A DNA stretch of 64,000 bases, from IMG/VR virus record IMGVR_UViG_3300042197_000731, positions 59,285 to 123,284 of that record; one strand, written 5' to 3'. Below the pieces are notes generated by a model that searched no databases, was not told the origin of the DNA, and worked only from the letters and a program-made list of their open reading frames with translations. Below, in pieces: positions 16,311 through 64,000 of the stretch (its first letter is position 1; the number at the start of each line of letters is the position of its first letter). The DNA comes from a virus. Both the position numbers and the translations under genes were made by a program.

Positions 16311-18761
16311 TTATTTATCTTTCTGCTGTCTATATGTTCCGCCAAACAAGGTGCCAACTTTGGACTTATTCTTTATCTTTGGATTTACAACTCCAGCAAT
16401 ACTACCTGCTGTAGTTTCATCTATTGTGGATTTTTTTGCTACATCTTTTAATTTCAAGATTGTGGCATTATTGCGATCCGCCCAACGATTTGCTTCATCT
16501 TCGCTACGAAAAACTTTTGTTTTTACTATTTTTTGATCACGATTGTTATACACTTGAATCAACGCTTCTACCGAATTATCTGTGCTTTCCGATACGCTTT
16601 CCTTCTTGGTATTTTTCACACAATTAGGGTATTTTTTACCAAACATAGTTTTCATACCCTCTTTACGATAGCCTTTCCAACATGCCTCGCCTACTTTGCT
16701 CTCATTGACGCCAAAATCTTTGTTAGTAACTTGCCACGGCTGTTTTAAAGGAACAGGATCTGGACTTGGCTTAACACCAGCGGTAGTTGAAATATTTTTT
16801 GCTCTAGCAAGATTAGATTTGACCATATTTAACGCATCTGGAGTAATGCTTCCACGAACGCCAGTTTGAGTAGCATCTGGAACGACATCGAAACCCTGAC
16901 GTTTCATGCCACTGCTTTGTAAAACTGTATCAGTTTTTGAAACAATTTGATCTAACTGTTTTTGATCTGTACCTTCCGCCACACCTTGCTTTAGACGCTT
17001 GCCGTTGATTACTTCTACACCGTTGATTTCTAAAGGATACCAATCATTGATTGCCAATCGTTCAAACACTTCATCCAACGAACTGGCTTTTACTTTCAAC
17101 TTTACTTGCTTGGACAATGCGTTGCTCTTGTCAAAGGCTAATACTCGGTAAACTTGATCCGAGCCTTCCGCCACACCTTGCTGTTTCACACCTTGCTGTT
17201 TTTGTTGACGTTTTACTGCTTTCTGTTTAGCAAGTTTAGCAGGGCTTGTTGGTTGTTTTAATCCTTTTTTCCAGTTAGCAGGTGGAGTTTTAATCTCGCC
17301 TCCCCACTGGTCAAATTCGCCTTCCGCCACACCTTGTTCGCTAATATGCTTTAGATGCGTAGTAGTTAATACGAAAGAATCCTTATACTTACCATCTTCG
17401 CCGGCTTTGCTAGGATCGTCTAACTTAACTTTAACTCGCCCATCTACATTGATATTTTTAGATACAGCAACAATCGTACCTGTGCCCAACGGACCATCTA
17501 CACGATCTCCTACATTGTAGGTATTCTTAAAGCCTTCCGCCACACCTTTCGCCTTTAGGTGCATGTCTCTTGTTTTTACATAACGCTTGGTTTCTTTATC
17601 TCCAGATTCAATATCACCTTGATTATAATGCCCTATTGCTCGTCCTGCGTGTTTACTTGCAACCACATCGGGATGTTCTTTGCCTTTGATAGAACGCTTG
17701 ATGCCTTTTACAACATCACTAAAGCCTTTCGCCACACCTTGGCGGCCAAGTTTTTTCTTAATACTAGCGATTTCACGGGCAATAGCATTTTGTTTAGTCC
17801 AGAAACTGTAATCATCACTGTATTGATATTCTGGATCAAATTCGCTTTCTAACTCACGCAATCTTGCTTCTAATTCCTCTCTACTTGGCTCAGGCGCATA
17901 CTTTGCTTGTGATTTAGTTGGACCACCAGTTTTTAATTGACCGCTCTTTTTCATATCATCAATCATCGCAGCAAACTGACTATGAAAATCACTTTCATTA
18001 ACAGTTGATTCAGACGCAGCACGTATTGATTTTAGATCTTTATCTGATGGCGCACCTTTGCTGCCAGGTTTACGCATACGTTCACCACTGCCACCTTTTA
18101 TACGTTCACGTTTTGCTCTGATATTAGCCCATAAGCCCGGTTTTTCACTCTCACTTACTGGCTGTTCAGTTGATGTAGTGTTATCGGCGGGTAAATTTTT
18201 AGTGTAGTAAATTACAGATTTTTTATCTGATGCTTCATCGTATTCACGCTTAATCTTCTGTGCCATTTCTGGATTTTTATCCATCATGGATCTGAAGTAT
18301 GTTTTGGCGCCATTCAACCAATTGAATTTTTTAGGCATGCCATCTACGCTAACAGGATTGCCCTTAACGATAACATACCAAGGACCACGCTCAAAATCTT
18401 GAAATTTTTCTTCTTCGTCTTCCGCTACTGGAGCGGTTGACTCAACTACACTATTTTTTTTTACTGGTTTCAATCCTTCTGCTAGTGGAAGAAAATCATC
18501 TTCACCAGCGTCAACATTCATCATTTGATATTCAAGATGTTCTCTGACCGATTTTAGATAGTCATTTGCTAGTGTTATCTTGGAAGCGACCCAACCTTCT
18601 AAGCCTTGTTCTTCAGAAATATTACGTAATAACTTGTGTAGAACAATAGCATGTTCAGCGGCATAGTAGCAATCTACTCTGGCCATTTGAACTTCGTGAT
18701 CGCTATGGGCTTCATGTGCGTCCTCTAAGAAGCCTTCCTTTAGAAACTGTTTACTATTCAT
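16311..18761 (-). CDS. modular polyprotein with QGVAE-repeat junctions (putative capsid-packaged)
   Basis: Leader MNSKQFLKE; five GVA(E/K)G repeats delimiting 52-71-aa unrelated modules; TAAATA upstream. Confidence 0.8.
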   Translation of the reverse strand: MNSKQFLKEGFLEDAHEAHSDHEVQMARVDCYYAAEHAIVLHKLLRNISEEQGLEGWVASKITLANDYLKSVREHLEYQMMNVDAGEDDFLPLAEGLKPVKKNSVVESTAPVAEDEEEKFQDFERGPWYVIVKGNPVSVDGMPKKFNWLNGAKTYFRSMMDKNPEMAQKIKREYDEASDKKSVIYYTKNLPADNTTSTEQPVSESEKPGLWANIRAKRERIKGGSGERMRKPGSKGAPSDKDLKSIRAASESTVNESDFHSQFAAMIDDMKKSGQLKTGGPTKSQAKYAPEPSREELEARLRELESEFDPEYQYSDDYSFWTKQNAIAREIASIKKKLGRQGVAKGFSDVVKGIKRSIKGKEHPDVVASKHAGRAIGHYNQGDIESGDKETKRYVKTRDMHLKAKGVAEGFKNTYNVGDRVDGPLGTGTIVAVSKNINVDGRVKVKLDDPSKAGEDGKYKDSFVLTTTHLKHISEQGVAEGEFDQWGGEIKTPPANWKKGLKQPTSPAKLAKQKAVKRQQKQQGVKQQGVAEGSDQVYRVLAFDKSNALSKQVKLKVKASSLDEVFERLAINDWYPLEINGVEVINGKRLKQGVAEGTDQKQLDQIVSKTDTVLQSSGMKRQGFDVVPDATQTGVRGSITPDALNMVKSNLARAKNISTTAGVKPSPDPVPLKQPWQVTNKDFGVNESKVGEACWKGYRKEGMKTMFGKKYPNCVKNTKKESVSESTDNSVEALIQVYNNRDQKIVKTKVFRSEDEANRWADRNNATILKLKDVAKKSTIDETTAGSIAGVVNPKIKNKSKVGTLFGGTYRQQKDK
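16973..17741 (-). repeat. array of five 16-bp repeats CAAGGTGTGGCGGAAG
   Basis: Copies at 16973, 17165, 17321 (exact), 17534 and 17726 (1 mismatch each); spacings 192/156/213/192 bp, all in frame. Confidence 0.92.
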
Positions 18762-18788
18762 TTCGGTTAATCCTATGATTTTATATAT

Positions 18789-19892
18789 TTATCTACTATT
18801 TGTAATTGCGTCTGGATGTTTTCGGTTGTAAAGACGCATGATAACGCCTGCTTGGGCATTTGCGCCATTTTCTTCATCACTACCTGTTACGCCGGAGTTG
18901 TGGTCTAATTCATTGTTTAAGTGTTGTTTGTAATGTACTAATTCGTGTGCTAGAGTTCTTAACACATCAACAGGATGTCTGCCATGTACACCTACCAATA
19001 TCATATTCTTTTCAGGCATGAATTGACCAAAACTGCTTTGAATGCCATCGCCGCCTATCGTCATCTTGAATGAAATCTTGGGTAAATTCTTTATCTCCAA
19101 CACCTTCATTGCTATCGGTAAAAATTGTCTAATAGAGCCTTTTAGAGCATCTATAGTTGATATGTCTTCATTGATTTTACCACTTATTGGACTTGCTGTA
19201 TCCGTGCTCACGCCTACTATATCTTCGGTTGTTGCTGATTGAATCTTATCAAAAATTGTGCCCAGTTCTTGACGTGGATATTTGTACATCTTGGTCAAGA
19301 ATTCTGTTCTCTCTTCTGGATTGTTACGAATTTTGTTCCATAAATTTCTAGCATCAGTGCCGTGACTTACGTCATATGTTTCGTTGCCGATGGTAATTTT
19401 TTTCTGTAGTTCCGGAATCACTACGACATATCCATGTTTATCGGCAGTGACTGGTTGCTCACCATCTCGCAGTGTTTTGTAGTAACTAGGGCTACCTGCT
19501 GGTTTGGTAATATTTCCGTCTTTGTCTTTTTGATCTCTTTTGGTATATGTATCTGGGTTCAATCGATCAGCATCTGGGCCACCTACCACTGTTATGAATA
19601 CAGTGTTTGCTGGGTCAAATTTTTGTGGTAGTACATACATCTTGTTGGTTTCAATAATTCTGTCACCAGGAACACCAGCAGCGGTCATTAGTTGATATTT
19701 GTCGTTGAAGTTGAATGGGCTTTTAGGACCACTGGTATCATTGCTAGTGAGAATGTACACATTTTCACTGCCAAATCTACGTTGTAGTATTTCAAATACG
19801 CCAGCATGGCCTTGATGAAATGGCTGAAATCTTCCAGGGTAAGTAACAATTACATCTGGCTTTTGTTGTTCGTAAAGTTCGTATGCGTACAT
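18789..19892 (-). CDS. HxGH cytidylyltransferase-like nucleotidyltransferase fused to a HEXXH zinc metallopeptidase
   Basis: YPGRFQPFHQGH; TLAHELVHYKQ...EENGAN; leader MYAYELYE. Confidence 0.75.
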   Translation of the reverse strand: MYAYELYEQQKPDVIVTYPGRFQPFHQGHAGVFEILQRRFGSENVYILTSNDTSGPKSPFNFNDKYQLMTAAGVPGDRIIETNKMYVLPQKFDPANTVFITVVGGPDADRLNPDTYTKRDQKDKDGNITKPAGSPSYYKTLRDGEQPVTADKHGYVVVIPELQKKITIGNETYDVSHGTDARNLWNKIRNNPEERTEFLTKMYKYPRQELGTIFDKIQSATTEDIVGVSTDTASPISGKINEDISTIDALKGSIRQFLPIAMKVLEIKNLPKISFKMTIGGDGIQSSFGQFMPEKNMILVGVHGRHPVDVLRTLAHELVHYKQHLNNELDHNSGVTGSDEENGANAQAGVIMRLYNRKHPDAITNSR

Positions 19893-19930
19893 AGTAATTA
19901 TATGTTAATACTATATTTATTACAGAAATA

Positions 19931-19955
19931 GAAAACGGGACACTGTGGTCCCGTT
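19931..19955 (-). terminator. rho-independent terminator
   Basis: AACGGGAC-cacagt-GTCCCGTT followed by TTC on the minus strand. Confidence 0.6.
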
Positions 19956-19978
19956 ACGATGTTTTACGTGTTTAAGTA

Positions 19979-20923
19979 TCAACTAGCAGGTTCAACAACT
20001 GTTGATTTTTCAGCCAGTGCTGCCTCTGCTGCTTTCTTTTGTGCTTCTAGTGCTGCTTTACCTTCTGGGCTATTAGCATCAACACGCTTTAGACCACGAC
20101 GTTCTAGCGCAGATAGATCGCCCTTGAACTCATAATGTCCAATGTGATTTAGTAGCACTCTGCTATCTGCCCAGATATCACCACCTAGTGCCTGCCAACG
20201 ACGACAGAATGTCCAGTCTTCACTTAGATAGTGTCCCTTAGCATCAATCACAGTATCGAAAATACTATACATGAATGGTTCGTATTGCTTACCTAGGCCG
20301 ATATCGTCAACATATTTACATTCTGGATGTGCGACAGTAAGTTGTTCATAAACATGCTTCTTGAATAGTAGGAAACCTGTTCCTTGTGTATCTACTTGGA
20401 AGATAGGCCCTTCAATTCTGCCACCATTCTTTAGATTGATAACATAGTCAATAGGCAAACTCTTCTTAGGATACAGACCACCGATAACGTCCTTATCTGC
20501 GGCAATCATGCCAAAAATTGCTTCTGGTTCAAACCGAATATCAGCATCAATAAACATGAAGTGTGTTGCTGCTGCGTTGGTCATCATCTTGGCACATAGA
20601 TTATTTCTAGCGCGAGTGACCAGACTCTCATTGACCATAGTATCTAGACTCCAGTTTAGACCTACTTTGCTCGCTAGCAAGGTAAATCGTAGAAAACTGG
20701 TCATAGTTGGCTCACTGACCATACCGCCATAACATGGAACAGCAAAGTGTACATGAACTTTCTTATAATCAAACGTGGGTTGTTGTGTGCCTGGTGTGGT
20801 TTTTGGTAGATTAGGCACGGGCATAATAGGCTTAGTTAACTTAGGTACTGGTGTTCCAGAACTTTGTGGTGTAATAAGTTTTGCGTCTACAGTTTCTTTT
20901 TCGCTCATTGATTTTTCTTTCAT
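19979..20923 (-). CDS. GT-A fold glycosyltransferase
   Basis: VPCYGG, ESLVTRARN, FMFIDADI (DxD), GTGFLL, LSEDWTFC, HIG. Confidence 0.8.
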   Translation of the reverse strand: MKEKSMSEKETVDAKLITPQSSGTPVPKLTKPIMPVPNLPKTTPGTQQPTFDYKKVHVHFAVPCYGGMVSEPTMTSFLRFTLLASKVGLNWSLDTMVNESLVTRARNNLCAKMMTNAAATHFMFIDADIRFEPEAIFGMIAADKDVIGGLYPKKSLPIDYVINLKNGGRIEGPIFQVDTQGTGFLLFKKHVYEQLTVAHPECKYVDDIGLGKQYEPFMYSIFDTVIDAKGHYLSEDWTFCRRWQALGGDIWADSRVLLNHIGHYEFKGDLSALERRGLKRVDANSPEGKAALEAQKKAAEAALAEKSTVVEPAS

Positions 20924-21087
20924 TCAGTTTCTATTTCTACAATGATATCATTGCCGACTAATTCTTGAACAATTTGTTCAAGTGATGCTAAAACTTCAGT
21001 ACTAGCAAGTGATGTTTCTAGTGTATCTGAATTTTTAACTAGTTTATTAAGTTTTATAGTTATGATTTCTTCATGGATTTTTGCCAT
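20920..21087 (-). CDS. hypothetical protein (55 aa, not in ORF track)
   Basis: Manual translation MAKIHEEIITIKLNKLVK...VQELVGNDIIVEIETE; TAAATA upstream; ATGA overlap with the next gene. Confidence 0.6.
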   Translation of the reverse strand: MAKIHEEIITIKLNKLVKNSDTLETSLASTEVLASLEQIVQELVGNDIIVEIETE

Positions 21088-21120
21088 TTGTTGTTGATCC
21101 TAGTTGAATATGGATATTTA

Positions 21121-21843
21121 TTATTCAGGATCAACCAGATTATAAATTTTATTAACGATTCCTGGATGAACAATATTCAGCAACATTACGATTTTTTCAT
21201 CGTTAGTATAAAAATACCCACCACCAAAATATCCTTTTCCACGTCTTAATTGACGAACAAGATATTCGCTTGCGCTGTTTTCTATTTCTGACTTTGATAT
21301 AACATCAGCAAGAGCATTGGCATTTTCAATATTAAACGCACGATTTAATGTTATTTTATATTTGAAAGAATTATGTTGACTGCGTATGATATTGCCATCT
21401 GTAATTAATTTATGTTGAGCATCTGAGCCTGGAATAGATACTTCTATCACTCTTTCGCCATATAAATTTGCTACCGTCTTTAGTAATTCAATATCATTAC
21501 TGTAGAATATAGCATGTGGTTCTTCAACACGAAATCTTAGATCAGTGCTTTTGTCATGATTTTCAATAAAATTTGATAAATCATGTAGTTGAGTATCATC
21601 GGCATTTTCGAAATTACTACGTTGTCTATTGTAGAAGTAACTACTACCATAAAACTTATTTGCTCTCTCAATCATTTCAATGATACGATCAGAAAAACTA
21701 GTTATATTTTTACTTCGCAGTAATTTACAACCAGGAGCATAAATTTTTACACTGTTAGCATATATTCCATAAAATGCTTTTTTTGTATTTTGAATATTAA
21801 CAGTTGGATTTAATTGAGTCCAGAATGATGTATCCATTTTCAT
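21121..21843 (-). CDS. hypothetical protein
   Basis: 240-aa ORF. Confidence 0.7.
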   Translation of the reverse strand: MKMDTSFWTQLNPTVNIQNTKKAFYGIYANSVKIYAPGCKLLRSKNITSFSDRIIEMIERANKFYGSSYFYNRQRSNFENADDTQLHDLSNFIENHDKSTDLRFRVEEPHAIFYSNDIELLKTVANLYGERVIEVSIPGSDAQHKLITDGNIIRSQHNSFKYKITLNRAFNIENANALADVISKSEIENSASEYLVRQLRRGKGYFGGGYFYTNDEKIVMLLNIVHPGIVNKIYNLVDPE

Positions 21844-24091
21844 CTATTAGAGTGTTAGTGTTGTATATTGTATATGCTTTTTGCTGAAAGTCAAACTCAA
21901 TTTTACCATTATAAGTAACATTGACGTTACACTTAGATAACTTTTCAAATAATATCTTTTTGCTCAGTGGCACTTTGATCAATTCAGAAATAGTTCGGGC
22001 CAATGGCCTTGCGCCCAGTTTGCTATCATAGCCAACTTCAATGATACGATCCATAGCAGTGGTATCAAGATTAACGGTAATACCTTTATCTAGCAGCAGA
22101 TCATTTAATTCCTTGACGAACTTGCCAATAATTAACTTGATATGATCCTTGGATAACTTCTTGAACTTAACGATGCTATCAAGACGATTTCTGAACTCTG
22201 GCTTGAAGAAGTCTTTAACTGCCTTATCGTCTTCGTTTGATTTCTCTAATTTAGGAACAAATCCCATGGTGTTAGTTTCATTCTCTGCTGCGCCAAGATT
22301 GCTAGTTAGCATCAATACACATTGACGACAATTTGCCTTCTTGCCATTGCTGCTGGTAACTATACCTTCGTCCATCATGGTTAGTAGAATGTGAGCAACA
22401 TCTGGATGTGCTTTTTCAATCTCGTCAAACAGAATTACTGAATTAGGATTCTTTTCAATATCACTGATCAACAGACCGCCACCCAAATTGCCGTCATCAT
22501 AGCCAACATATCCCGGTGGCGCACCAATCAACTTTGCGATAGCATGTTTTTCTTGATACTCGCTCATGTCGTACCGTATCAACTTCATGCCTAGATTTTC
22601 TGCTAGTAATTTAGCCAATTCTGTTTTGCCTGTACCGGTTGGACCAGTTAATAGAAAACTGCCAACAGGTTTATTCAGTGCTTTCAGTCCAGCCTTGCTA
22701 ACATATATTTTTTCTAAGATAGTATCTACTGCTCCATCTTGGCCAAATAGTTTAGACTTGATATTGCCCTCAATATTCTCTACTAGTGATACGTTCTGAG
22801 CATCCAATTGTTCTATTGGAACTTTGATATATTGACTGAGAACACTGATAATATCGCTTTTCTTGATAGTTAAATTCTGACCTAGAACTTTTGCCTTAGC
22901 ACAGGCAGTATCAAGTAGATCAATGGCTTTGTCTGGCAGTTTTTTATCTGTTTGATACTTGGCACTTAATTCAACGGCAGCAATTACTGCCTCATCAGTT
23001 ATTTCTACGCCATGAAAATCTTCAAAAACATCAGTTAACTCGGTGATAATTTTCTTTGCTATATCAATGCTTGGTTCATCAACGGTCAATCTGTAAAAAC
23101 GGCGCATCAATGCCCGATCTTTTTCAAAACTCTGATTGTATTCTTCCCATGTTGTACTGGCGATTACTTTGATATTGCCCTTGGTTAGTGCTGGCTTGAT
23201 CATGTTTGAAAAGTCTACACTACTATTTGAACCACTGCCGGCACCACGCATCTGATGTGCTTCGTCAATGAAAAGAATAGTATCACCCTTAAGTTCAAGT
23301 GCCTTTAATACATGTTTCAATTTTTCTTCAAACTCGCCACGATACTTACTGCCTGCCAGTAGCGATGGAATATCAAGACTATATACAGTGTAATTCTTTA
23401 GATAGTCTGGAACTTCGCCTTCAACAATTTTTACTGCCAATCCCTCGGCAATAGCAGTTTTGCCAACGCCAGGATCGCCTACCATAAGCACATTACACTT
23501 GTTTCTCTTTGCTAGAACATTGATCATTTCCTCTAGTTCTACTTCTCTGCCAATTACGGGATCCAATTTTTCTGATTTTGCCATTTCAGACAAGTTATCA
23601 CAATAGTTTTCTAGCAGGGTATCCAACTGAGACTTGCCCTTTTTCTTTGGCTTTTGTTCAGCGAAAGTATTATTCCAGTAATTGATTACTTTATCTTTCT
23701 CGATGCCATACTTCATTAAGAAGTACCGCGCATGACTTTTATCTTCAGCACATATACTCAGATAGATATCTACAATTTGTAAATTTGATCGTCCACTAAA
23801 CAGTACTTGAGTAAACGCACGATTAAATACTCGTTCTAGAGTGTGAGTCTTTTTTGGAACAATATCGTAACCGTTGCTGATTAAATAAGTTTGACTATCA
23901 ATGTAATCTTCTAACTCAATCAGTAGATCATCAATTTTTACTTCTAATTTGGTAGTCAACTCACGAAATATATCGTGTGTGAGTAAGCCGTAAAGCAGAT
24001 GCTCTAGCGTTACATATTCGTGATTTTTCTTGATGGCTAGTTTAGTAGCCTCTTCAATAATCTTATCAATTTCTGGTTGTGTTTGTAGCAT
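21797..24091 (-). CDS. clpA: ATP-dependent Clp protease ATP-binding subunit ClpA-like
   Basis: Clp-N HEYVTLEHLL; two AAA+ modules (GDPGVGKT/FIDEAH and GPTGTGKT/FDEIEKAH); GARPL. Confidence 0.92.
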   Translation of the reverse strand: MLQTQPEIDKIIEEATKLAIKKNHEYVTLEHLLYGLLTHDIFRELTTKLEVKIDDLLIELEDYIDSQTYLISNGYDIVPKKTHTLERVFNRAFTQVLFSGRSNLQIVDIYLSICAEDKSHARYFLMKYGIEKDKVINYWNNTFAEQKPKKKGKSQLDTLLENYCDNLSEMAKSEKLDPVIGREVELEEMINVLAKRNKCNVLMVGDPGVGKTAIAEGLAVKIVEGEVPDYLKNYTVYSLDIPSLLAGSKYRGEFEEKLKHVLKALELKGDTILFIDEAHQMRGAGSGSNSSVDFSNMIKPALTKGNIKVIASTTWEEYNQSFEKDRALMRRFYRLTVDEPSIDIAKKIITELTDVFEDFHGVEITDEAVIAAVELSAKYQTDKKLPDKAIDLLDTACAKAKVLGQNLTIKKSDIISVLSQYIKVPIEQLDAQNVSLVENIEGNIKSKLFGQDGAVDTILEKIYVSKAGLKALNKPVGSFLLTGPTGTGKTELAKLLAENLGMKLIRYDMSEYQEKHAIAKLIGAPPGYVGYDDGNLGGGLLISDIEKNPNSVILFDEIEKAHPDVAHILLTMMDEGIVTSSNGKKANCRQCVLMLTSNLGAAENETNTMGFVPKLEKSNEDDKAVKDFFKPEFRNRLDSIVKFKKLSKDHIKLIIGKFVKELNDLLLDKGITVNLDTTAMDRIIEVGYDSKLGARPLARTISELIKVPLSKKILFEKLSKCNVNVTYNGKIEFDFQQKAYTIYNTNTLIDENGYIILDSIKSNC

Positions 24092-24099
24092 GTAGATAT

Positions 24100-24915
24100 T
24101 TAGGTAGATGTTTTGATTTGTCGCACTAAATCTAGTTGTGAGACAGATAAGGTAGTTGGTATTATAATGTTAACTTTCACATAAAAATTTCCTCTGATAT
24201 CCTTTTGAAATTCATATAAACCCTCGCCTGGTATTTTAAATTTTGTACCTTGTTGAGTGTTTGGTGGTATTTTTATGATGAAAGTTTTTTCGGATAGTGT
24301 TTGTACTTCTAGTTCACAGCCTAGTATAGCATCAAAGCAGTTCAGCGAAATTTCCGTTTCTAGATCCAAGCCTTTTTGTATAAATTTGTTAGACTCGTGA
24401 ACGATGATGCTGATGTACAAGTCGCCTGGGTGAGCGTTTGGGAAAATTCTCTCACCTCCACCACCAAACTTCATTACAGTGCCAGATTTTATACCTCTGG
24501 GTATCTTTATCTCTAGCGTTTTGCTATCGTTGTTCTTAGTGCGTATCGTTACAAATTTTGTAGTTTCGGACAACGTATCTGCTAGATTAATTTCTATTGA
24601 AGTTTTTATGTCTGGATTTCTACGTTGTCCCCTCATAAAATGCGAAAATATATCACCGTCACCAAATGAAAATCCAAATGAGTTGAATACATCATCAATG
24701 TTTGGATTACCGCCAAAATTACCACTTCTCATGGCGTCGTATTCTGCTCGCTTACGATCATCCATGAGTGTATCATATGCTTGCTGTATTTCTTGAAACT
24801 TAGCAGTATCACCACCACGATCTGGGTGATGTTTGCCCGCTAACTTTCTATACGAACTTTTGATTTCGTCCTTGGAAGCACCAGGAGATACATTTAAAAT
24901 TTTATAATAATCCAT
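24100..24915 (-). CDS. DnaJ-class chaperone (J domain plus C-terminal domain, no zinc finger)
   Basis: DYYKIL..IKSSYRKLAGKHHPDRGG; GDLYI; G/F-rich linker. Confidence 0.9.
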   Translation of the reverse strand: MDYYKILNVSPGASKDEIKSSYRKLAGKHHPDRGGDTAKFQEIQQAYDTLMDDRKRAEYDAMRSGNFGGNPNIDDVFNSFGFSFGDGDIFSHFMRGQRRNPDIKTSIEINLADTLSETTKFVTIRTKNNDSKTLEIKIPRGIKSGTVMKFGGGGERIFPNAHPGDLYISIIVHESNKFIQKGLDLETEISLNCFDAILGCELEVQTLSEKTFIIKIPPNTQQGTKFKIPGEGLYEFQKDIRGNFYVKVNIIIPTTLSVSQLDLVRQIKTST

Positions 24916-56176: not shown

Positions 56177-56190
56177 CTCCGTTGTCTAAC

Positions 56191-56230
56191 TCAGTGAATA
56201 CAGTATAAGAGGTTTTGTATTATTTGTCAA
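56191..56230 (-). promoter_or_regulatory. sigma70-type early promoter
   Basis: TTGACA-17 nt-TATACT, followed by the same GTATTCACTGA. Confidence 0.8.
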
Positions 56231-56646
56231 ATCGGGAAGTTTTGATTGGCCATACGTTTGGCTATGGATTTCTGAACTTTAAAGTTTACAGGTTGACCCA
56301 TACCAGCCTCATCGTGCGTTAGCATGGCATACACTCGCAGGACGCTAGGATTTGCGCCTGATAGCGTATAAAACACACTGATATTGTGAGTTAGATGGGC
56401 GTGTTTAATGCCTGGAATTTCCAGCGACATCGGTGTGTTGGGCGTATTTCTTTTGTCCGAGGCTCCAAAAGGTTCAGTTGGATTCTCTTTTTTTGATTTT
56501 AAGAATTCAACATACTTTTCTAATACCTTAGGATTAGATCTGACATATCTACCAGCCGTTTCCTGGAATAGTGGACACTCCGAAACTACCATTCTCGGAG
56601 TATTGCCAGGAACTTGTGATTTTACTTCGCCGCGCCCTTTTGCCAT
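56227..56646 (-). CDS. RelE/YafQ-like mRNA interferase toxin
   Basis: F.....K..EFL..K..NP..D...IKHAHLTHNISVFY..LRVYAMLTHDE resembles the YafQ H.HI..D.LL.Y..L.R.G.H pattern. Confidence 0.55.
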   Translation of the reverse strand: MAKGRGEVKSQVPGNTPRMVVSECPLFQETAGRYVRSNPKVLEKYVEFLKSKKENPTEPFGASDKRNTPNTPMSLEIPGIKHAHLTHNISVFYTLSGANPSVLRVYAMLTHDEAGMGQPVNFKVQKSIAKRMANQNFPI

Positions 56647-56831
56647 GCGAGGGCACCTTCACGAAGATTTTTGATGTAGGAATCAACATCAACAGGTTCA
56701 GACCAAACATCAGCACGATGGGCTTCGACCACACGAACCAGATCCGAGGTAGCAACACCAGTATCATTGCCGCTGTCCAGCGATTCGTACAGGTGTTGGC
56801 CGCGCAGTTGGGTGATTTCGGTAATCTTCAT
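56622..56831 (-). CDS. small acidic protein, putative antitoxin
   Basis: 69 aa; overlaps the toxin-like gene; leader MKITEI..LYE. Confidence 0.45.
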   Translation of the reverse strand: MKITEITQLRGQHLYESLDSGNDTGVATSDLVRVVEAHRADVWSEPVDVDSYIKNLREGALAWQKGAAK

Positions 56832-56873
56832 GATGTTACATCTCTGACTTGGTATGAATCCATTATAGTGTAT

Positions 56874-57077
56874 TTAGCATTTATCGTCAAATTTTTTCTT
56901 GATGGTATCCAGCACTGCCGTAGCGTCAGTGTACTCGGACATTTTATCCAACTTGCCCTCAACCGTGGTGAAGATTCCCTCATAGTTTGGCACTGTGACG
57001 CTAGGCGTAATGCCCAAACTCAGAGTATAGGGCAGGTTGTATACAAGGGTTGTATTCCAGAAAAATTTCTTGTCCAT
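56874..57077 (-). CDS. hypothetical protein
   Basis: 67-aa ORF with AAGGA RBS. Confidence 0.5.
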   Translation of the reverse strand: MDKKFFWNTTLVYNLPYTLSLGITPSVTVPNYEGIFTTVEGKLDKMSEYTDATAVLDTIKKKFDDKC

Positions 57078-57234
57078 GATTGTCCTTTCTAGGAGAAAGG
57101 TATAATACTACAACTTTGTTTTTTTGTCAAAAAATTTGATGGGATGAATGGCAAAGTAAATTATTGCTCCGATAATAGACCCTAATCCTACGCCCACAAT
57201 AATACTATTTACAAGTGTTATATCCATGGCAAGT

Positions 57235-58602
57235 TTATTGTTTTCCATCAATTTCTGCTGCTGCCTTGATATGTCTACGTCTCCATGTTGCAGGATCAGG
57301 ATCTTTTAAAACATCTCGGGCATAGAGTACATCAATACTATTTCCATCTATTTGTGTATTATTTTGTTTACTGAATAGTGCTATACTGTCTTCGGCGTCA
57401 GATGATAATTTCACTCCGAATGTCAATATATAGTTCATAATAATCTTATATGAGATAGCAGAGCCAAAATTCCAATTACTAACTATTTCATCTATGTTTG
57501 GTTCTATTTCTGGCCAACGCTGTTTTAGTATTTTAAGAGCATAGTAACATGCGATAGAAATACTTTTAGTTAGATATGGTTCTAATTCAGGCCAACGCTC
57601 ACCTCTTTTGCTTAACGCATCAATTAAATCTCTGAAATCAGCACTATATTTCACAACTGATATTCTTGGTAATTCGTTTAACAACATATTACGACCGTAT
57701 TTCCATCCAGGTTCAATATCTGTCAAATATCGTAATATGTTATATATATCCTTATGCTCAATTACATACTTTCTAAGATCATGTATACTGATTTGTTTAT
57801 TTTTATATCTGTCTATAACTGTTTGAAATGTATAGTATCTTAACTCTCGTCTAATCGCACTGATAGGTGTACTGTTTTCAAAACTTTTAAGTAGTCTAAT
57901 TCCCGAAGTATTAAGTACAACACCTTGAGTGGGTTCATCTGGATATATGATACCATCGCCGAAATCAAGAACTGTGTTATAACCTAATACAGTGCGTAAT
58001 ATCCAATTCCAAATATTAGCGGCCCTAGATCCAATTACATCTCTTAGCCATTGACTAAGTTTCCAAGTCACAAACCATATATTTCCACCTGGTGATGCTA
58101 CACGACCTTCTGTTAATTTTGACTGATCAAGATATTCTATAAATGCGGTAAAATCTTTAGTATCAGCACTAAACATACTACCACCTACTTTTCTTTTAAA
58201 TTTATCTAATAGGCCAGGTATATTATCTAATGCTGTTTTTAGTTTTTCTAAATCGCGCTGATAATTTGCGTTTGTATAATCGTCTAAGAACAGTATTGGT
58301 TCTGGAAATTGAAATATTTGAATATATGGTGCATCATCTACAAAAGGTAATTTTCTAGGAGCATAGTGATCTTTTTTCTCTAGATAATATTCACCAGGAT
58401 AGAAATATACACCATTAGGAGTATTGTATGTGCTACGAGGATTTACCCCAATCTTATTGATCATGGTCATTGAGATACCAATTTGATTGATATCTACGCC
58501 ACTGTTAACCAGAAAATTGACTGCGCCTTTATGTCCAGATACTTCGCGTGGATTTTGTACTGGATTGCGACGGGCTTCTGTGGTAAATTCGTTTGCTCGC
58601 AT
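57235..58602 (-). CDS. putative capsid-packaged protein, paralog of 51535..52920
   Basis: MRANEFTTEARRNP; IGVNPRSTYNTPNGVYFYP; IIYPDEPTQ; TAAATA upstream. Confidence 0.7.
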   Translation of the reverse strand: MRANEFTTEARRNPVQNPREVSGHKGAVNFLVNSGVDINQIGISMTMINKIGVNPRSTYNTPNGVYFYPGEYYLEKKDHYAPRKLPFVDDAPYIQIFQFPEPILFLDDYTNANYQRDLEKLKTALDNIPGLLDKFKRKVGGSMFSADTKDFTAFIEYLDQSKLTEGRVASPGGNIWFVTWKLSQWLRDVIGSRAANIWNWILRTVLGYNTVLDFGDGIIYPDEPTQGVVLNTSGIRLLKSFENSTPISAIRRELRYYTFQTVIDRYKNKQISIHDLRKYVIEHKDIYNILRYLTDIEPGWKYGRNMLLNELPRISVVKYSADFRDLIDALSKRGERWPELEPYLTKSISIACYYALKILKQRWPEIEPNIDEIVSNWNFGSAISYKIIMNYILTFGVKLSSDAEDSIALFSKQNNTQIDGNSIDVLYARDVLKDPDPATWRRRHIKAAAEIDGKQ

Positions 58603-58609
58603 AGTTTAG

Positions 58610-58615
58610 TATTTA
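58610..58615 (-). promoter_or_regulatory. T4-like late promoter core TAAATA (representative copy)
   Basis: Same hexamer lies shortly upstream of starts at 7799, 18761, 19892, 21087, 24091, 27067, 28244, 30362, 38863, 39481, 53810, 54224 and 58602. Confidence 0.65.
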
Positions 58616-59194
58616 TTACTCACCTCCACCGCCATCACCTGAACCTTCACCAGTGCCGTAGTATCCACCGTAATATGCCGGACCATAGAAATAACGATTG
58701 GTTTTCTTCTTTGTAGATTTACGCGACTTTTTGCGTTCATCCAATTCTATTTGTTCGTTATTCTTTTTACGACCTTGGCAATGTGCTCGTTGGCTGAATC
58801 CTTTAGGATTCTTACAGTTTATACTCTTTTTATACTTTTCACTCCAGGCTTCCGCCACACCTTGTTGAGATTCGCTCAAGTCATCCTTCTTATAAGTAAT
58901 ACTCCAATTATCGTCACCGTAAATTACGACACCTTCGTAGTCATCGCTGTAATCAATATAAAGTTTACGCTTTACTCCGTCTGGGCAAGTAACACCTTTT
59001 TCTAGTCTACGTTCAACTTTTTCTTGAGACTGAATATCGCTATCTAAATCTCCGCTAGACACATCACCATTTAGCCACTGTGCGGCTAAGGTTTTTAGTA
59101 TATCGTCTCCACCACCTCCGCTGTCGGTAGCAAATTCGTTCAATGTATCTTCCGCCACACCTTGCTGTTTGTTTACGAATTCTGACGCTCGCAT
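58616..59194 (-). CDS. modular protein with two QGVAE junctions
   Basis: MRASEF leader; exact 16-bp repeats at 58849 and 59149; WSEKYKKSINC..HC module; Y/G-rich tail. Confidence 0.75.
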   Translation of the reverse strand: MRASEFVNKQQGVAEDTLNEFATDSGGGGDDILKTLAAQWLNGDVSSGDLDSDIQSQEKVERRLEKGVTCPDGVKRKLYIDYSDDYEGVVIYGDDNWSITYKKDDLSESQQGVAEAWSEKYKKSINCKNPKGFSQRAHCQGRKKNNEQIELDERKKSRKSTKKKTNRYFYGPAYYGGYYGTGEGSGDGGGGE

Positions 59195-59197
59195 AAT

Positions 59198-59791
59198 TTA
59201 CCACGCCCTTGGTTTAATTTTTACTTCGCCCACTAACCGTAAACTATCAGTACGATACCAGGCAGTACTTTCTACATCCCACAGCCCCATTAACTTGTTA
59301 TCCTGTCTACTACGAAAAGATCCTGACAATCTAGCAGGATAACGAATGGCATCTATGTATTTACTCAATTCTTCCCAGGGATATGTACTTAATCTATCCC
59401 AACTATCTAACTTATATTCACGGTTGAATAACTTAGCAATTTTTATAGCAGCAGCATCACTGCCCAAATTCAATATCTTAGCGCCTGGCTGTATTTGATA
59501 CAGTGATCCTTTAGGTGACACCCATCGTGGCATATTGTAATAACACCATTCTACCCATTCACTGGTATATCCTACATCTCCGCCACGATTGATCGCAGTA
59601 CTAGTCCATAACTTGGCATTGGGTTTAATATCTTCGCCTAACGCGGTACGGTCTAATTTTGGCATATACAATTGAAGACGATGCGTTTTACTAGCAGCCA
59701 TCTTATTACCAGTTTGAGTGGCAACATCAATCAATGCCTGTAATTCAGGTGATATACTTTCATCTTCAACTATAAATTCTTTAGAGATCAT
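59198..59791 (-). CDS. putative capsid-packaged hypothetical protein
   Basis: MISKEFIVE leader; LWTS..W..W..YIDAI..WDVEST. Confidence 0.65.
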   Translation of the reverse strand: MISKEFIVEDESISPELQALIDVATQTGNKMAASKTHRLQLYMPKLDRTALGEDIKPNAKLWTSTAINRGGDVGYTSEWVEWCYYNMPRWVSPKGSLYQIQPGAKILNLGSDAAAIKIAKLFNREYKLDSWDRLSTYPWEELSKYIDAIRYPARLSGSFRSRQDNKLMGLWDVESTAWYRTDSLRLVGEVKIKPRAW

Positions 59792-61067
59792 TCGGGTCAG
59801 CCTTTATGTATTGTAGGAAGTTCTGATGTCTATCCTTTAACCCAAACAATTTTGGATTTATTTTCTTGGTCACCGCAGTGGTATTAGTAAAGTCATTGAC
59901 TTCTGGTTTAACTCTACTATTCCAATACCATACGGCAATCTTTGCTGCGATATCAGGATCTGCTGCTAGATCAGGTTGTGCTTCTAGAGGTAATCCCAAT
60001 GCTTTGCCTGCTATACGATAATTATATCGTCCGGTTAGTTGTATGTATCCACGGCCACGATATTTGACACCATCACCGGGCTTTACATTGCCTAACAATT
60101 TAGCAGTTGTAGGAGCATATTTACGCTCATAACGGTTGAAATACTTTTTACCACCATGCTCTATCATTCTAGCATAGTCCATGGTTTCATGCGCGGTTTG
60201 TGCTAAGAATTGGGCTAACTCTGTACCTGCTAATCCAGCCTGTTGAGCAAATGCCATCAACTTTTTTTCTAATGGATTATCAGTAATGGGTTCAATTTTT
60301 TGTTGAACTTTTGCCACTTGAGGTTTCTGTTTAGACGCTACTGGGGCCGCTATAGGTTTCACTGTACCAGATGCCTGAGTTTGACTGGCAACAGTGGGCG
60401 GTGGATTCATGAACTGTGATACTTTGTCTTTGACTGCCATTCCACCAACTGCTCCGGCGCCCATAGCAGCAGCAAAACCCAAATTGGCTAACTGTTGCTT
60501 GAACCCTTCCGCTAATTCATCTTCTGGAATTATCTTACTGTATTCACCTTTGTTTAAGTAAAGTTCATTTTCTAATCTATACTCTAAACTGTTTAATTCA
60601 TTCCAACGATCTGATACAGTACTTATATACTTACGGGCAAGTTCTGGATTGGTTTTTTGTAACTGTTCCAACTTGTAATTCATTTGCGCTAGTTTGGATT
60701 TTATGCCGGCAAGTTTTTGTTTCTTCTTGATGATTTCTGGATTAGGACGACGAATATAGTCTATACTACCACGTAGTTTTGAACCAGCAGGTGTAGTGAT
60801 ACCCCAATCTATTTCTTCATCTGGGCTTAATTCCTGCAATGCTTTTAACATTTGACGAGCAATACGGCTTCTTCTAAATTCAGGAGCAACATAGATCATA
60901 TGTATTGAAGGACGATCCCGATATATGGAATAGTTTAAGTAACCTACCTGTTGTTCTGGGGTTTTTGCTATTAGCGTACCTTTATATCCGTCACGGAAAC
61001 TATCTTCAACATTGTTGACGATTTCTAGTCCACTGATATCTTCATCCATAATCTCATATGATCGCAT
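59781..61067 (-). CDS. GNAT acetyltransferase fused to a GH19 lysozyme/chitinase-like domain
   Basis: IYVAPEFRRSRIA..T.AG (GNAT); FLAQTAHET..YRGRGYIQLTGRYNY..WYW..TKKIN (GH19); leader MRSYEIMDE. Confidence 0.8.
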   Translation of the reverse strand: MRSYEIMDEDISGLEIVNNVEDSFRDGYKGTLIAKTPEQQVGYLNYSIYRDRPSIHMIYVAPEFRRSRIARQMLKALQELSPDEEIDWGITTPAGSKLRGSIDYIRRPNPEIIKKKQKLAGIKSKLAQMNYKLEQLQKTNPELARKYISTVSDRWNELNSLEYRLENELYLNKGEYSKIIPEDELAEGFKQQLANLGFAAAMGAGAVGGMAVKDKVSQFMNPPPTVASQTQASGTVKPIAAPVASKQKPQVAKVQQKIEPITDNPLEKKLMAFAQQAGLAGTELAQFLAQTAHETMDYARMIEHGGKKYFNRYERKYAPTTAKLLGNVKPGDGVKYRGRGYIQLTGRYNYRIAGKALGLPLEAQPDLAADPDIAAKIAVWYWNSRVKPEVNDFTNTTAVTKKINPKLFGLKDRHQNFLQYIKADPNDL

Positions 61068-61079
61068 ACTTGTCCTATC

Positions 61080-61820
61080 TTATTCTTTTGTGAAATCATT
61101 GGCATCAGAATATGTCCCGATATTGCCATAGACCGATTTTAATTGTTTGCCACTAAAAATTGCCCAAACTTCATAATTCTTTTCAAAAAAAATAATACCA
61201 TCATATCCCAACTTTTTTAATGATTTTACGAAGTAATCTCCGTCTTCGTCATCTAATAATTCCCATGTATGTTGAACATTGTAAATCCATCTTGGATTAA
61301 CTCCTACTGATATTAATTCATTTTCTTGTTGTTCAGATAGGCCAGTACGCAAATCGAAAGGATTTGTTACCTTAGCATATACTGTAATGATGTTTGCTCC
61401 GCTCTTTTCCAGATCACTGTATTCATGAGCAAATTTTAAATTTGGTGTTAAAAATATAGCCGCTCTGGATACCTCTACATTGCCTAAAATACCATAATTA
61501 TTATATGTTTTTAGGTGTGCTTTGAATTCCTGAAAATCACTATTAGTGCCATGAAAAAATACCAATGGTCTATTTTTAGAATCTACCGCAACACTGTTAT
61601 TAAACCATTTCCAAAAATTCTCCAAACTTTGCTTTACACTAGATATTATTCTACCTCTACTGTTAATATTAGGTAATCTATATGTTTTTTTAGTGCCCTT
61701 AGATGATGTAGTTTTATTTATTGGAATGGTACTTCTTTTTGTCGCAAATGTATCAGGAAATAAATCATCTTGAGTTTCCAATATTTGATGTTTATTTTTC
61801 ATGAATTCGTTAGAGAGCAT
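61080..61820 (-). CDS. ADP-ribosyltransferase-like (ART-PolyVal type) protein
   Basis: PLVFFHGT..IFLTP..FA.EY..VYAKV.NP..GYDGII..VWAIF..KQLKS. Confidence 0.65.
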   Translation of the reverse strand: MLSNEFMKNKHQILETQDDLFPDTFATKRSTIPINKTTSSKGTKKTYRLPNINSRGRIISSVKQSLENFWKWFNNSVAVDSKNRPLVFFHGTNSDFQEFKAHLKTYNNYGILGNVEVSRAAIFLTPNLKFAHEYSDLEKSGANIITVYAKVTNPFDLRTGLSEQQENELISVGVNPRWIYNVQHTWELLDDEDGDYFVKSLKKLGYDGIIFFEKNYEVWAIFSGKQLKSVYGNIGTYSDANDFTKE

Positions 61821-61828
61821 ACTTGTCC

Positions 61829-64000
61829 TTACATTACATAAACTTGGCCAACACTGTTGCCTAAAACATCATTGAACATTAATTCCATATCACGGGCTAA
61901 CATTTCACTTATCTGTCTACGCTCAGTTTCATCACGGAATTCGGGTTTTATGTTCAAGTATTTACTCGGGTTACCAAATACTTTACGACCATAACCTAAG
62001 TTAGTTGGTAGTGGATTTAGTGTGATAGTACCAGTGCCTAAGTATTGTGCGAATAGTTCGTACATGAATTCATATGGGCGACGAATTTGTCCTGTACGAC
62101 TACTACGTTGTGTGCCAATGGCATTGAATAGTGCATTGTATTCTGGTGTTAAATTGTAATTAGGTTGATCTGCTTTACGAAAATCAAAAACACTACCAAC
62201 TTTACCATAATATTCATCTAACAAGCGATTGACGGTAGAGAAGAATAGTTTTTCAGTTTCCTGCCACGCACTCCATTTATCCCGTCTTGCTCCTGCCTGT
62301 ATAGCATGTCCAAAACGATGTGCCATAATCCACGGAGTCATCATGACTTTTGCGTCGCCACGATTGCTGACATAAACTACCGTGATAGCATCATCATGAT
62401 TATCTAGTATTTTTTTAGCATCCTCTTCGCCAAATACTTTAACAATCTGATCAGGTGTCATGGGACCATATTCTTGATATTGACCTAACCCTGGCTTATT
62501 AGCAAAAAATAAACGGAAATCGTATGGAGTTTGTTCAAAGAATTTAGCGGCTTTTAATTCACTTTTGGGATGTGGTACTAATCGTTTATCTACACCGCGG
62601 AATGATCCTGGCTTACTGAAGTCACCTAATGTCTTGTAACTGGCCAATGCCATTTCATCTACGGTGTCTTCTGCCACATCTTTTTCTATACGATGATTTC
62701 TACCACCTATCAGATCTTGAATAATTTTTATTGCTTCTTCTTCGCTGCCGGCACGCACTGTTCTCGTCTTGGTGTATAAGGGCTTTTCTCTATTGGTGAA
62801 ATACATGTCATAAGTGACGCGGTATTTCTGTTCGGTGTCTTCCGCCACAGATTGTTGTAGTGCGCCTTCCTTGTTCCCAGCGATAATGGCTGCAATCTTT
62901 GGAATGTTTGCCAGTGTGAATTCAACCCATTTTTTACCATCTAACTCTTGACTGTTGTATCCAGTTAATAATTTGCCATCATGCGCTTTATAATACTTAC
63001 CCACATGCATCATACCCTGAATACCTACGCCGCGCTTTTGTCTATCGTAAGCAAGTCTGGGATCATCATAGGCATATAACTGACTTGGTCCATATTCCGT
63101 TGGGTCTATTGGTATAAATCGTGCTTTAACTTGTTTTGGTTGTTGACTCATCTGTAATGTAAAGTTATCTTTTAACAGGTAAGCAATACCTTTAATGAAA
63201 ACTTGCCAGGGAATGTATTTAGAATTGCCGTCACCATCGTCACGGCGATCAGACGATGGAGAAAATTCATTCAATGAGCCCTCCGCTACACCTTGCTTGG
63301 TTTGAATTCGTTCTTGAACTTGTTTAACATCTTTTACTGTGCCATATAATGGTTTAGCATCTGAGTTACCCATAAATTTGTTAAAAAATTCTTTAGGGTT
63401 AAAGGGACCCTTAACACTGTAATCACCTTTAGACAATGTAAAATCTCTAGCCATATCTTCAATACTTCTAATACCCTTTACGTCAACTTGCCCTTCACCT
63501 GGGATATTAACAAATACATGTGTTATTTCATATGGAAATGATTTAGACCATGATTCACCTTGGTTATTTGACAAAATATAAATTTGTGAACCTAAATTAT
63601 TTAATGATAACGCGACTGCGAAAATGCCGCATCCTTCGTTCATATAATAATCTGTATCTAATTTACTATCTGTTTCTTTAGCCACACCTTCTTCCCAAAC
63701 ATTACCACCTTCTCCGCGATTTTTATCCCAAAACCTTTTACCCATACTAGTCTGATCACCGCGAATAATACGAAATCCCTGTGGCAAACTCTTTACCCAA
63801 TCATACATCTTCTTAGCGATACCGCGACCTCTATACTCCTCATCTACCGCAAGATCATCTGGAAATAATGTTCTTCCATCACGGTTGAATATCACATACC
63901 CAACCTGTTTGCCATCAACTATGGCTCGTACATCAACATTAGCGCCATCAATACTATAATCTAGTGTTAGATCTTCGTAATTGGTTCTGGCTTCTACTAA
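61829..64000 (-). CDS. modular polyprotein (GNAT plus several unknown modules, four GVAE-type junctions); 5' end beyond the window
   Basis: Frame open to 64000 (LVEARTNY...); VDEEYRGRGIA GNAT; repeat copies at 63676, 63280, 62839, 62668. Confidence 0.8.
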   Translation of the reverse strand, partial: LVEARTNYEDLTLDYSIDGANVDVRAIVDGKQVGYVIFNRDGRTLFPDDLAVDEEYRGRGIAKKMYDWVKSLPQGFRIIRGDQTSMGKRFWDKNRGEGGNVWEEGVAKETDSKLDTDYYMNEGCGIFAVALSLNNLGSQIYILSNNQGESWSKSFPYEITHVFVNIPGEGQVDVKGIRSIEDMARDFTLSKGDYSVKGPFNPKEFFNKFMGNSDAKPLYGTVKDVKQVQERIQTKQGVAEGSLNEFSPSSDRRDDGDGNSKYIPWQVFIKGIAYLLKDNFTLQMSQQPKQVKARFIPIDPTEYGPSQLYAYDDPRLAYDRQKRGVGIQGMMHVGKYYKAHDGKLLTGYNSQELDGKKWVEFTLANIPKIAAIIAGNKEGALQQSVAEDTEQKYRVTYDMYFTNREKPLYTKTRTVRAGSEEEAIKIIQDLIGGRNHRIEKDVAEDTVDEMALASYKTLGDFSKPGSFRGVDKRLVPHPKSELKAAKFFEQTPYDFRLFFANKPGLGQYQEYGPMTPDQIVKVFGEEDAKKILDNHDDAITVVYVSNRGDAKVMMTPWIMAHRFGHAIQAGARRDKWSAWQETEKLFFSTVNRLLDEYYGKVGSVFDFRKADQPNYNLTPEYNALFNAIGTQRSSRTGQIRRPYEFMYELFAQYLGTGTITLNPLPTNLGYGRKVFGNPSKYLNIKPEFRDETERRQISEMLARDMELMFNDVLGNSVGQVYVM
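62668..63691 (-). repeat. four degenerate copies of the 16-bp CAAGGTGTGGCGGAAG repeat
   Basis: 2-3 mismatches each; spacings 171/441/396 bp, all in frame. Confidence 0.75.

Follow-up and report, generated by a model that had tools for sequence, protein, structure and literature searches.

In 1994, Repoila et al. reportedly described conserved elements at the internal protein (IP) loci of the T-even phages. In T4-type phages, short conserved motifs known as promoter-early stem-loops (PeSLs) act as crossovers at which units are inserted, deleted, and replaced, as set out in the available part of one study (Arbiol et al. 2010, PMC2839356). According to portions of a second paper, the T4 prohead protease gp21 cuts after L/I-x-E and the T4 capsid targeting sequence is about 10 residues long (PMC9026906). 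The gp21 homologs of giant phages cut after S/A-x-E or A-x-E, and in phiKZ, 201phi2-1, and SPN3US many head and ejection proteins are cut after Glu within a three-residue motif, with redundant sites (sections of PMC5694885 and PMC9026906). Polyvalent proteins, as covered in part of a further paper, have 2-15 domains and extensive mosaicism, are predicted to be packaged and injected, and for some of them proteolytic processing has been proposed (Iyer et al. 2017, PMC5512222). Here, we analyzed the last 64 kb (the window; 64,000 nucleotides (nt), positions 59,285 to 123,284) of a 123,284-nt viral contig, IMG/VR record IMGVR_UViG_3300042197_000731 (hereafter G000; CheckV completeness 35%, 37% G+C), in which a 16-bp word, CAAGGTGTGGCGGAAG, encodes the peptide QGVAE and joins protein modules in three genes. 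We consider it likely that these genes encode head-targeted cargo polyproteins and that the linker is both an in-frame exchange point and a protease site.

Linker copies in the window

Eleven copies of CAAGGTGTGGCGGAAG were found in the window: five exact, two with one mismatch, two with two, and two with three. Chance expectation was 0.29 copies, and none of 100 shuffles reached 11. An initial annotation had listed the same 11 copies, and all were found again at their positions with the same mismatch counts. Its statement that they share one orientation and frame was also borne out, with the correction that the word reads on the minus strand; the coordinates given here are plus-strand positions of the reverse complement. 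All 11 copies were in frame as [Q/K/E]-[G/S/D]-V-A-[E/K] within three minus-strand open reading frames (ORFs), and most were followed by G or D. The linker spacings of 192, 156, 213, 192, 300, 171, 441, and 396 nt were each a multiple of 3, the flanking DNA was unrelated right to the first and last base of the word, and blastp among the 16 copy-defined segments of the window detected no mutual similarity at E ≤ 0.01. Both properties had been claimed for the segments at the outset. The word was the most repeated 13-mer in the whole 123-kb contig, and when the proposed genome-wide scan was run on this contig, the remaining 59 kb held no copy at two or fewer mismatches.

Five copies lie in gene 1 (16311..18761, minus strand, as for all the copies and genes below). 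Three are exact, at 16973..16988 (KQGVAE, then G), 17165..17180 (QQGVAE, then G), and 17321..17336 (EQGVAE, then G), and two carry one mismatch, at 17534..17549 (AKGVAE, then G) and 17726..17741 (Glu to Lys, RQGVAK-G). Gene 2 (58616..59194) has two exact copies, at 58849..58864 (SQQGVAE, then A) and 59149..59164 (KQQGVAE, then D), and the latter closes its N-terminal leader. The most decayed copies are all within gene 3 (61829..64000), at 62668..62683 (three mismatches, EKDVAE, then D; codon GCA), 62839..62854 (two mismatches, QQSVAE, then D), 63280..63295 (two synonymous mismatches, KQGVAE, then G; codons GTA and GAG), and 63676..63691 (three mismatches, Glu to Lys, EEGVAK-E; codon GCT). The two Glu-to-Lys changes reported earlier are real and are those at 17726 and 63676. 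Directly upstream of the copy at 17165, positions 17181-17198 (minus strand) hold a partial duplicate, CAGCAAGGTGTGAAACAG (QQGVKQ), giving QQGVK-QQGVAE. This duplicate looks like a scar of slippage or of an abortive exchange at the word.

Conservation of the word as DNA

Across 136 ORFs of the contig, GTG accounted for 11.1% of Val codons and GCG for 13.1% of Ala codons. The linker copies in the window used GTG in 10 of 11 cases and GCG in 9 of 11, as expected from the earlier remark that GTG-GCG is mostly retained in an AT-rich genome. The 10 other V-A-E peptides of the contig never used GTG and used GCG once. In the same polyprotein ORFs of other contigs, with the motif codons excluded, GCG made up 4-8% of Ala codons across a range of 30-55% G+C.

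Since the IMG/VR and metagenome sets described below were selected by the word, an unbiased set of 80 loci was fetched via an N-terminal protein module of gene 1 (alignment A2) without using the word. Eleven of these loci contained GVAE in ORFs of at least 100 amino acids (aa), with 24 GVAE peptides in total. GGTGTGGCGGAA encoded 17 of the 24, compared to the 0.35% predicted by codon usage. A search of the same loci for a second linker returned, as its top recurrent 4-mers ending in E, only peptides from conserved orthologous genes. The test of silent conservation at orthologous sites could be applied to only three cases, of which two were contigs that also belonged to the seed set. Taken together, the codon counts support conservation of the repeat at the DNA level beyond the needs of the peptide, in agreement with the constraint or homogenization that had been suggested; GVAE codons matching the genome background were not found. 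At one site (L015, position ~2351, compared with L272), the same two modules are adjacent in both loci with a flank identity of 76%, and the word in L015 corresponds to EEETD in L272. Either loss or insertion of a linker between this module pair would explain the difference.

Exchange of modules at the word

Modules of the three genes recurred in other contigs in other combinations, at 27-80% amino-acid identity; in one locus (L048), the second module of gene 2 was immediately followed by a module of gene 1. When 150 ORFs were cut at their 368 copies, 218 internal modules resulted, with a median length of 80 aa and up to 11 modules per ORF, and most of the 218 had no relative within the sample. 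Single-linkage clustering of the modules produced one cluster of 184 segments, an artifact of multi-module end segments, and was not used, so the comparison rests on architecture strings and specific pairs. Megablast at 85% identity or more revealed isolated module-sized matches with the word at both ends in both contigs: L081/L105 (518 bp), L026/L067 (495 bp), L013/L108 (340 bp), L124/L127 (251 bp), L029/L093 (219 bp), and L022/L124 (181 bp at 97.8%). The translated contexts of five word-bounded pairs placed the same module between different neighbors, with single modules sharing 85-98% nucleotide identity.

The ends of similarity were then counted in a crossing test, in which 316-nt segments centered on 216 copies (at most one mismatch) were compared with all other loci by blastn and 10 near-identical full-length matches were set aside. 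Of 1186 alignments, 943 started or ended within 15 nt of the linker, and 7 crossed it, meaning that they extended 30 nt past the word on both sides. When the segments were shifted by +90 or -90 nt as controls, 492 and 389 alignments crossed, respectively. The closest relative, G005, whose major capsid protein is 90% identical, retained only the first and last modules of gene 1. It keeps the cytidylyltransferase-like gene, the interior of gene 1 has been replaced, and the locus is split into three ORFs with GVAE linkers of their own.

At least 20% of the gene-1 words in a 31-mer index were present in 24 sequencing runs from 14 studies. Contigs of four runs, labeled freshwater, marine, lake, and soil, were compared to gene 1; these are assembled contigs and thus do not give population frequencies. 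A contig from another study (X4) joined position 17537 to 17730, so that exactly 17538-17729, one 192-nt unit, was absent. The joint fell inside the repeat with 11 ambiguous letters, its shorter side was 113 letters long, and the edges of the deletion were the copies at 17534 and 17726. Nine of the 23 listed loose ends were at the edges of the five gene-1 copies, which span less than 4% of the stretch: contigs of three runs diverged at 16971/16972, next to the copy at 16973, and loose contig ends were seen at 17161/17163/17180 and at 17338/17339, next to the copies at 17165 and 17321. Another contig (X12) had the start of the word where gene 1 reads ESVSE. A further contig (X3) skipped 271 nt (16421-16691) with one letter between, a net loss of 270 nt or 90 codons that removed two C-terminal modules of gene 1. 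The edges of this deletion were directly after VGE (then A) and IDE (then T), which are hydrophobic-x-E sites without the canonical word. Most joints with sides of 20-23 letters reflected the repeat aligning to another copy and were not counted as deletions; only the X4 and X3 joints were used.

The gain, loss, and replacement of modules exactly at the word in relatives is well supported by these comparisons. The initial annotation had proposed that modules are inserted, deleted, and swapped at the repeat, and the word-bounded matches, the remodeled G005 locus, the X4 deletion, and the crossing test all agree with it. The comparison of orthologs that it recommended placed the breakpoints at repeat boundaries, and a fixed module order with breakpoints unrelated to the repeat was not found. 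Every sequence used is a metagenome assembly, and chimeric joins at a short shared word could in principle produce apparent mosaics. We find this explanation scarcely credible: at 16-20 nt, the word falls short of the k-mers commonly used in assembly and of the index 31-mers, the pattern occurs in hundreds of contigs from many samples and two collections, and the joins are in frame, unlike those expected of chimeras.

Decay of the linker copies

The decay of the word was followed in 128 ORFs with at least one exact copy. In frame, there were 172 exact copies and 68, 38, 46, and 42 copies with one, two, three, and four mismatches, respectively; the other two frames together gave only four such matches. 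In the 194 decayed copies, the T of GTG (7 changes) and the G and A of GAA (5 and 2) varied least. The first C varied most (82 changes, producing E or K), followed by the third bases of GCG (57) and GTG (50), where the usual replacement was A, which yields the preferred codon. This spectrum suggests that individual copies drift neutrally at silent sites while the peptide retains hydrophobic-x-Glu. The decayed copies therefore point to copy-and-decay turnover over strict constraint on each copy.

A module of gene 2 provided a view of the junctions from the protein side. Residues 116-165 (58700-58848) form a Cys- and Lys-rich module, WSxKYKxSINCxxPKGFSQxAHCxGxKK, which is held by more than 580 IMG/VR viral stretches. 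Among the 80 best of these stretches (L138-L217), the module was preceded by IEE, VSE, IDE, LAE, ITE, VME, and other hydrophobic-x-E peptides, and by the canonical QGVAE just once. In about 9 of the 80 it followed a leader (e.g., MRANEFVSE), and in about 12 it opened a stand-alone ORF (MGWSE...), these stand-alone ORFs being located in small contigs. The varied contexts suggest that the modules are autonomous, that the cleavage requirement is loose, and that QGVAE is one word identical by descent.

It could be argued that the head protease just cleaves QGVAE better than other peptides and that the shared codons were inherited incidentally and play no part in recombination. Hydrophobic-x-Glu is indeed the most conserved part of the decayed copies, and Gly or Asp usually follows the Glu. 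Yet the many peptides that precede the WSxKYK module imply that the needs of the protease are loose, and the other VAE peptides of the contig never use GTG. The codon counts of the unbiased set and the 943 alignments that break at the word, compared to 7 that cross it, contradict this explanation, and we regard it as very unlikely. Even less probable, in our judgment, is a signal in RNA or translation, in which the rare GTG-GCG codons or a Shine-Dalgarno-like AAGGUG would pause ribosomes so that the modules fold separately. GTG and GCG are rare codons in the polyprotein ORFs, and AGGUG is able to pair with the anti-Shine-Dalgarno sequence. However, the common codons CAA, GGT, and GAA are equally fixed, and in decayed copies the rare codons are lost first while the copies stay in place. 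Pausing also leaves the end of intergenomic similarity at the word unexplained, and there is no consistent start codon downstream of the word.

Distribution of the word

The exact word was present in at least 119 IMG/VR stretches, with at least 168 copies. Of the 168 copies listed, an open QGVAE frame contained 167 when a minimum of 60 aa was required and 156 when the minimum was 200 aa. The information content of these listed copies fell to background at 3 bases upstream of the word and at 2 bases downstream. In metagenome contigs, at least 152 exact copies were found in at least 120 stretches; 144 of the 152 listed copies were in frame, and 26 of 27 spacings shorter than 1.5 kb among the listed copies were multiples of 3.

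The linker-bearing jumbo contigs G001, G003, and G005 have major capsid proteins 79-90% identical to that of G000 and carry five to seven copies each. Two others, G002 (343 kb, 99% complete) and G004 (262 kb), also carry five to seven copies each, along with related cargo genes. By capsid protein, the nearest cultured phages were Vibrio phage 2.275.O (69.6%), Sinorhizobium phage Phosso, Pseudomonas phage PA5oct, and Yersinia phage fHe-Yen9-03. No analogous in-frame word was found in Vibrio phage 2.275.O, in which the repeated 12- and 13-mers were AT-rich, promoter- or terminator-like, and intergenic. About 20 copies of CGCAACTAATGTTTTATA occur at ~58-97 kb of that genome (MG592671.1), and many TGTTATAAT words occur genome-wide. 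These words look like repeated promoter-type regulatory cassettes and are reminiscent of PeSLs.

Search for a dedicated recombinase

Tyrosine (PF00589) and serine (PF00239) recombinases were absent from the 35%-complete G000, which extends to the contig the initial observation that no recombinase gene is visible in the window. The Pfam family Phage_integrase (PF00589) was not detected in any of five linker-bearing jumbo contigs, which range from 261 to 525 kb and include two that are at least 99% complete. The 16-mer is not palindromic and has no dyad symmetry, and conserved sequence is lacking on either side of it, which makes an attC-like or stem-loop structure unlikely. Since no integrase was found, homologous recombination fits better than an integron-like system, and the integron-like, site-specific attachment site that had been put forward initially was not supported by these sequences.

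Another possible explanation is that a dedicated sequence-specific nuclease, recombinase, or homing-type enzyme recognizes the 16-bp word and excises or inserts cassettes, with the word kept by selection. Some dedicated phage function would then recognize the word and cut or pair DNA at it, perhaps via circular cassette intermediates. This could account for the sharp edges of the conserved block, for the spike of exact copies (172 compared to 68 with one mismatch), and for a word that is identical across contigs whose capsid proteins are 10-21% different. Cassette recombination at T4-type PeSLs is also described, in the available part of that study, to make encapsidated mini-circles (PMC2839356). 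No circle-sized contigs were seen among the listed metagenome stretches, which is not evidence against circles. The absence of tyrosine and serine recombinases from G000 and of Phage_integrase from the five jumbo contigs (other nuclease families being unscreened), the lack of dyad symmetry, and the many decayed copies with neutral drift at silent sites make such an enzyme unlikely. If it did exist, there would be an in-frame, integron-like loading of cargo modules in which the same five codons specify release by the protease, and modules with the canonical word would spread as semi-selfish cassettes across phage lineages and habitats.

Head protease and leader sequences

A member of Peptidase_S77 (PF03420, the T4 gp21 family) was identified at G000:5517-5963 (minus strand) with an E-value of 1.8e-29, over the cut-off, adjoining scaffold-like proteins; the gp21 homolog containing this match spans 5385-6020. 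The family was also found in three of the five linker-bearing jumbo contigs. G000 encodes a Gp23 capsid protein with the N-terminus MTQVLLE-G...EALLE-G. About 11 genes of the window open with leaders of the form M-[RKN]-x-x-[EQ]-[FIL]...x-E, which are about 10-20 residues long and end in hydrophobic-x-Glu, among them MNSKQFLKEGFLE, MRASEFVNKQQGVAE, MRANEFTTE, MISKEFIVE, MRSYEIMDE, and MRINEILTE. The genes with leaders include those for an ART-PolyVal ADP-ribosyltransferase, a GNAT plus GH19 protein, and a cytidylyltransferase-like protein. The leaders presumably resemble that of T4 IPIII, and they also resemble the T4 capsid targeting sequence as given in part of the literature (PMC9026906). 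It is plausible that QGVAE is a cleavage site of the head protease and that the proteins are packaged in the head. The initial annotation had noted that V-A-E fits the hydrophobic-X-E motif of gp21-type proteases, and both the Peptidase_S77 gene on the contig and the retention of hydrophobic-x-Glu in decayed copies agree with it.

A model for linker shuffling

The phage would be an uncultured T4-like jumbo phage in which each of the three genes is a chain of small autonomous modules joined by Q-G-V-A-E. On an evolutionary scale, the comparisons show that modules are joined in frame at the 16-19 identical bases of the word, presumably by homologous recombination or direct-repeat slippage. Recombination at the word would bring in, remove, or substitute entire cassettes, both inside one phage and among related ones, and a dedicated recombinase would be unnecessary. 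Common descent from one word, duplicated with every exchange, would explain why the copies are identical: new junctions templated at the word would propagate the canonical sequence, and older copies would drift to preferred codons. As a hydrophobic-x-Glu site, the linker would be cut by the gp21-type prohead protease of the phage. A single leader would carry the string of modules into the prohead, where the modules would be cut apart and from which they would be ejected with the DNA.

Several points weigh against this model. When one seed per ORF was removed, 44 of 238 in-frame copies were exact, though this number also fits turnover, and the word itself may be under direct selection. RecA/UvsX was not found on the 35%-complete G000. 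The evidence for recombination consists of comparative patterns and one deletion variant in assembled contigs, not raw reads. The P3 residue of the linker is Val and not the published Leu or Ile of T4, the two Glu-to-Lys copies in the window would be left uncut by the protease, and cleavage, packaging, and ejection are all deduced from sequence. G002 and G004 had no match to the Peptidase_S77 family or to the Gp23 capsid protein of G000; either they have diverged, or the gp21 and gp23 genes are outside the records. The word was absent from the four nearest cultured phages, save one 2-mismatch match in PA5oct, and the gene-1 modules were not found in them by a search that had no positive control.

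The polyprotein genes and their neighbors

Gene 1 encodes 816 aa, with the leader MNSKQFLKEGFLE followed by at least eight segments. A short AT-rich, late-promoter-like word, ATAAATA, is located 31 nt upstream of it and 22-31 nt upstream of structural genes. The modules of gene 1 match stand-alone small phage genes and modules of other loci. Residues 206-244 (18030-18146), PGLWANIRAKRERIKGGSGERMRKPGSKGAP, match PHROG 16028 (E 5e-17) as well as small hypothetical proteins among 87 cultured marine phage records. With tblastn, gene 1 matched only as single small modules in these 87 records (Synechococcus, Prochlorococcus, Pelagibacter, and Roseobacter phages), and gene 3 gave one weak match to phage records. 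Megablast of gene 1 against 50,697 phage records returned no match.

Gene 2 encodes 192 aa and consists of the leader MRASEFVNKQ plus a linker, a first module, a second linker, and the module WSEKYKKSINCKNPKGFSQRAHC. Gene 3 encodes at least 723 aa, its 5' end being beyond the window and the contig, and contains a GNAT acetyltransferase module, three more modules, and a conserved 279-aa C-terminal module (61832-62668). The latter is 48.6% identical to L060 over 290 aa and contains MAHRFGHAIQ. It matched no Pfam family, and ESM Atlas gave only unnamed viral and bacterial clusters; a lead from ESM Atlas (a family on 17% of members, rank 23) was weak and was not used. Within the three polyproteins, Pfam recognizes only the GNAT domain; ART-PolyVal belongs to a neighboring gene.

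The gene adjacent to gene 2 at 57235..58602 (minus strand) has the T4-like capsid-targeting-type leader MRANEFTTE. Three neighboring genes at 59198..61820 (minus strand) have the leaders MISKEFIVE, MRSYEIMDE, and MLSNEFMKNKHQILE and encode, respectively, a protein of unknown function, a GNAT plus glycoside hydrolase 19 protein, and the ART-PolyVal ADP-ribosyltransferase. The leader-bearing GNAT-glycoside hydrolase family 19 fusion and ADP-ribosyltransferase (59781-61820) are candidate head-delivered enzymes. The upstream neighbor of gene 1 (18789..19892, minus strand) is the cytidylyltransferase-like gene, with the leader MYAYELYE, and its ortholog adjoins the remodeled polyprotein locus in G005.

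Comparison with known systems

The proteins described here share with T4 IPI, IPII, IPIII, and Alt a short leader ending in hydrophobic-x-Glu and a phage-encoded gp21-family protease, as those are presented in part of the literature (PMC9026906). In both cases the cargo varies widely and evolves fast, and here an ADP-ribosyltransferase gene is a neighbor. T4 cargo proteins are single units with one leader each, whereas here one leader precedes up to about 8 modules in the window, and up to 11 elsewhere, with a fixed DNA word internally. As is proposed for the linker, the sites of phiKZ, 201phi2-1, and SPN3US are three-residue motifs cut after Glu. Those sites are not reported, in the sections available, as a fixed DNA word or as points of module exchange, and they belong to a different lineage (PMC5694885, PMC9026906).

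Integrons likewise consist of an array of unrelated cassettes with a recurring site, and here too cassettes are common to several genomes. The linker system differs in that no integrase was found, the site is not palindromic, and the cassettes are parts of one ORF rather than promoterless genes. IntI-type PF00589 was absent from G000 and from all five jumbo contigs, and there were no attC-type imperfect inverted repeats. Polyvalent proteins are also multi-domain mosaics, and an ART-PolyVal gene adjoins a polyprotein gene here. Their proposed processing is by in-built metallopeptidase domains, in contrast to that of the proteins described here, and no nucleotide word at their junctions is described in the available text, in the main part of which the word "linker" does not occur (PMC5512222). 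Searches of the literature by linker sequence and by topic retrieved no description of a QGVAE linker in phage polyproteins.

PeSLs, which together with the T4 internal proteins and Alt and the polyvalent proteins are the closest known systems, offer a parallel in mechanism, in that recombination between copies inserts, deletes, and replaces units between close relatives. PeSLs are intergenic, non-coding promoter-terminator units that move whole genes, whereas the word is a translated part of ORFs, maintains the reading frame, and mobilizes protein modules. All 11 copies in the window were in ORFs and translated, in place of an intergenic promoter and terminator stem-loop. Because the flanks of the copies are unrelated there is no conserved stem-loop, and because the word is coding it is not a PeSL. 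What is known in T4-type phages is the motif-mediated shuffling of whole genes at intergenic cassettes, and what is new here is a crossover inside ORFs that preserves the reading frame and whose codons probably double as the protease site releasing the individual modules. Such shuffling would account for the quick diversification of head-delivered cargo in giant phages, and it singles out several hundred small modules, few of them with a known function, as candidate injected host-takeover or counter-defense proteins. It may also serve as a naturally occurring design rule by which one gene could supply several proteins to a T4-type capsid. Linker shuffling would be a prokaryotic-virus counterpart of phase-compatible exon shuffling.

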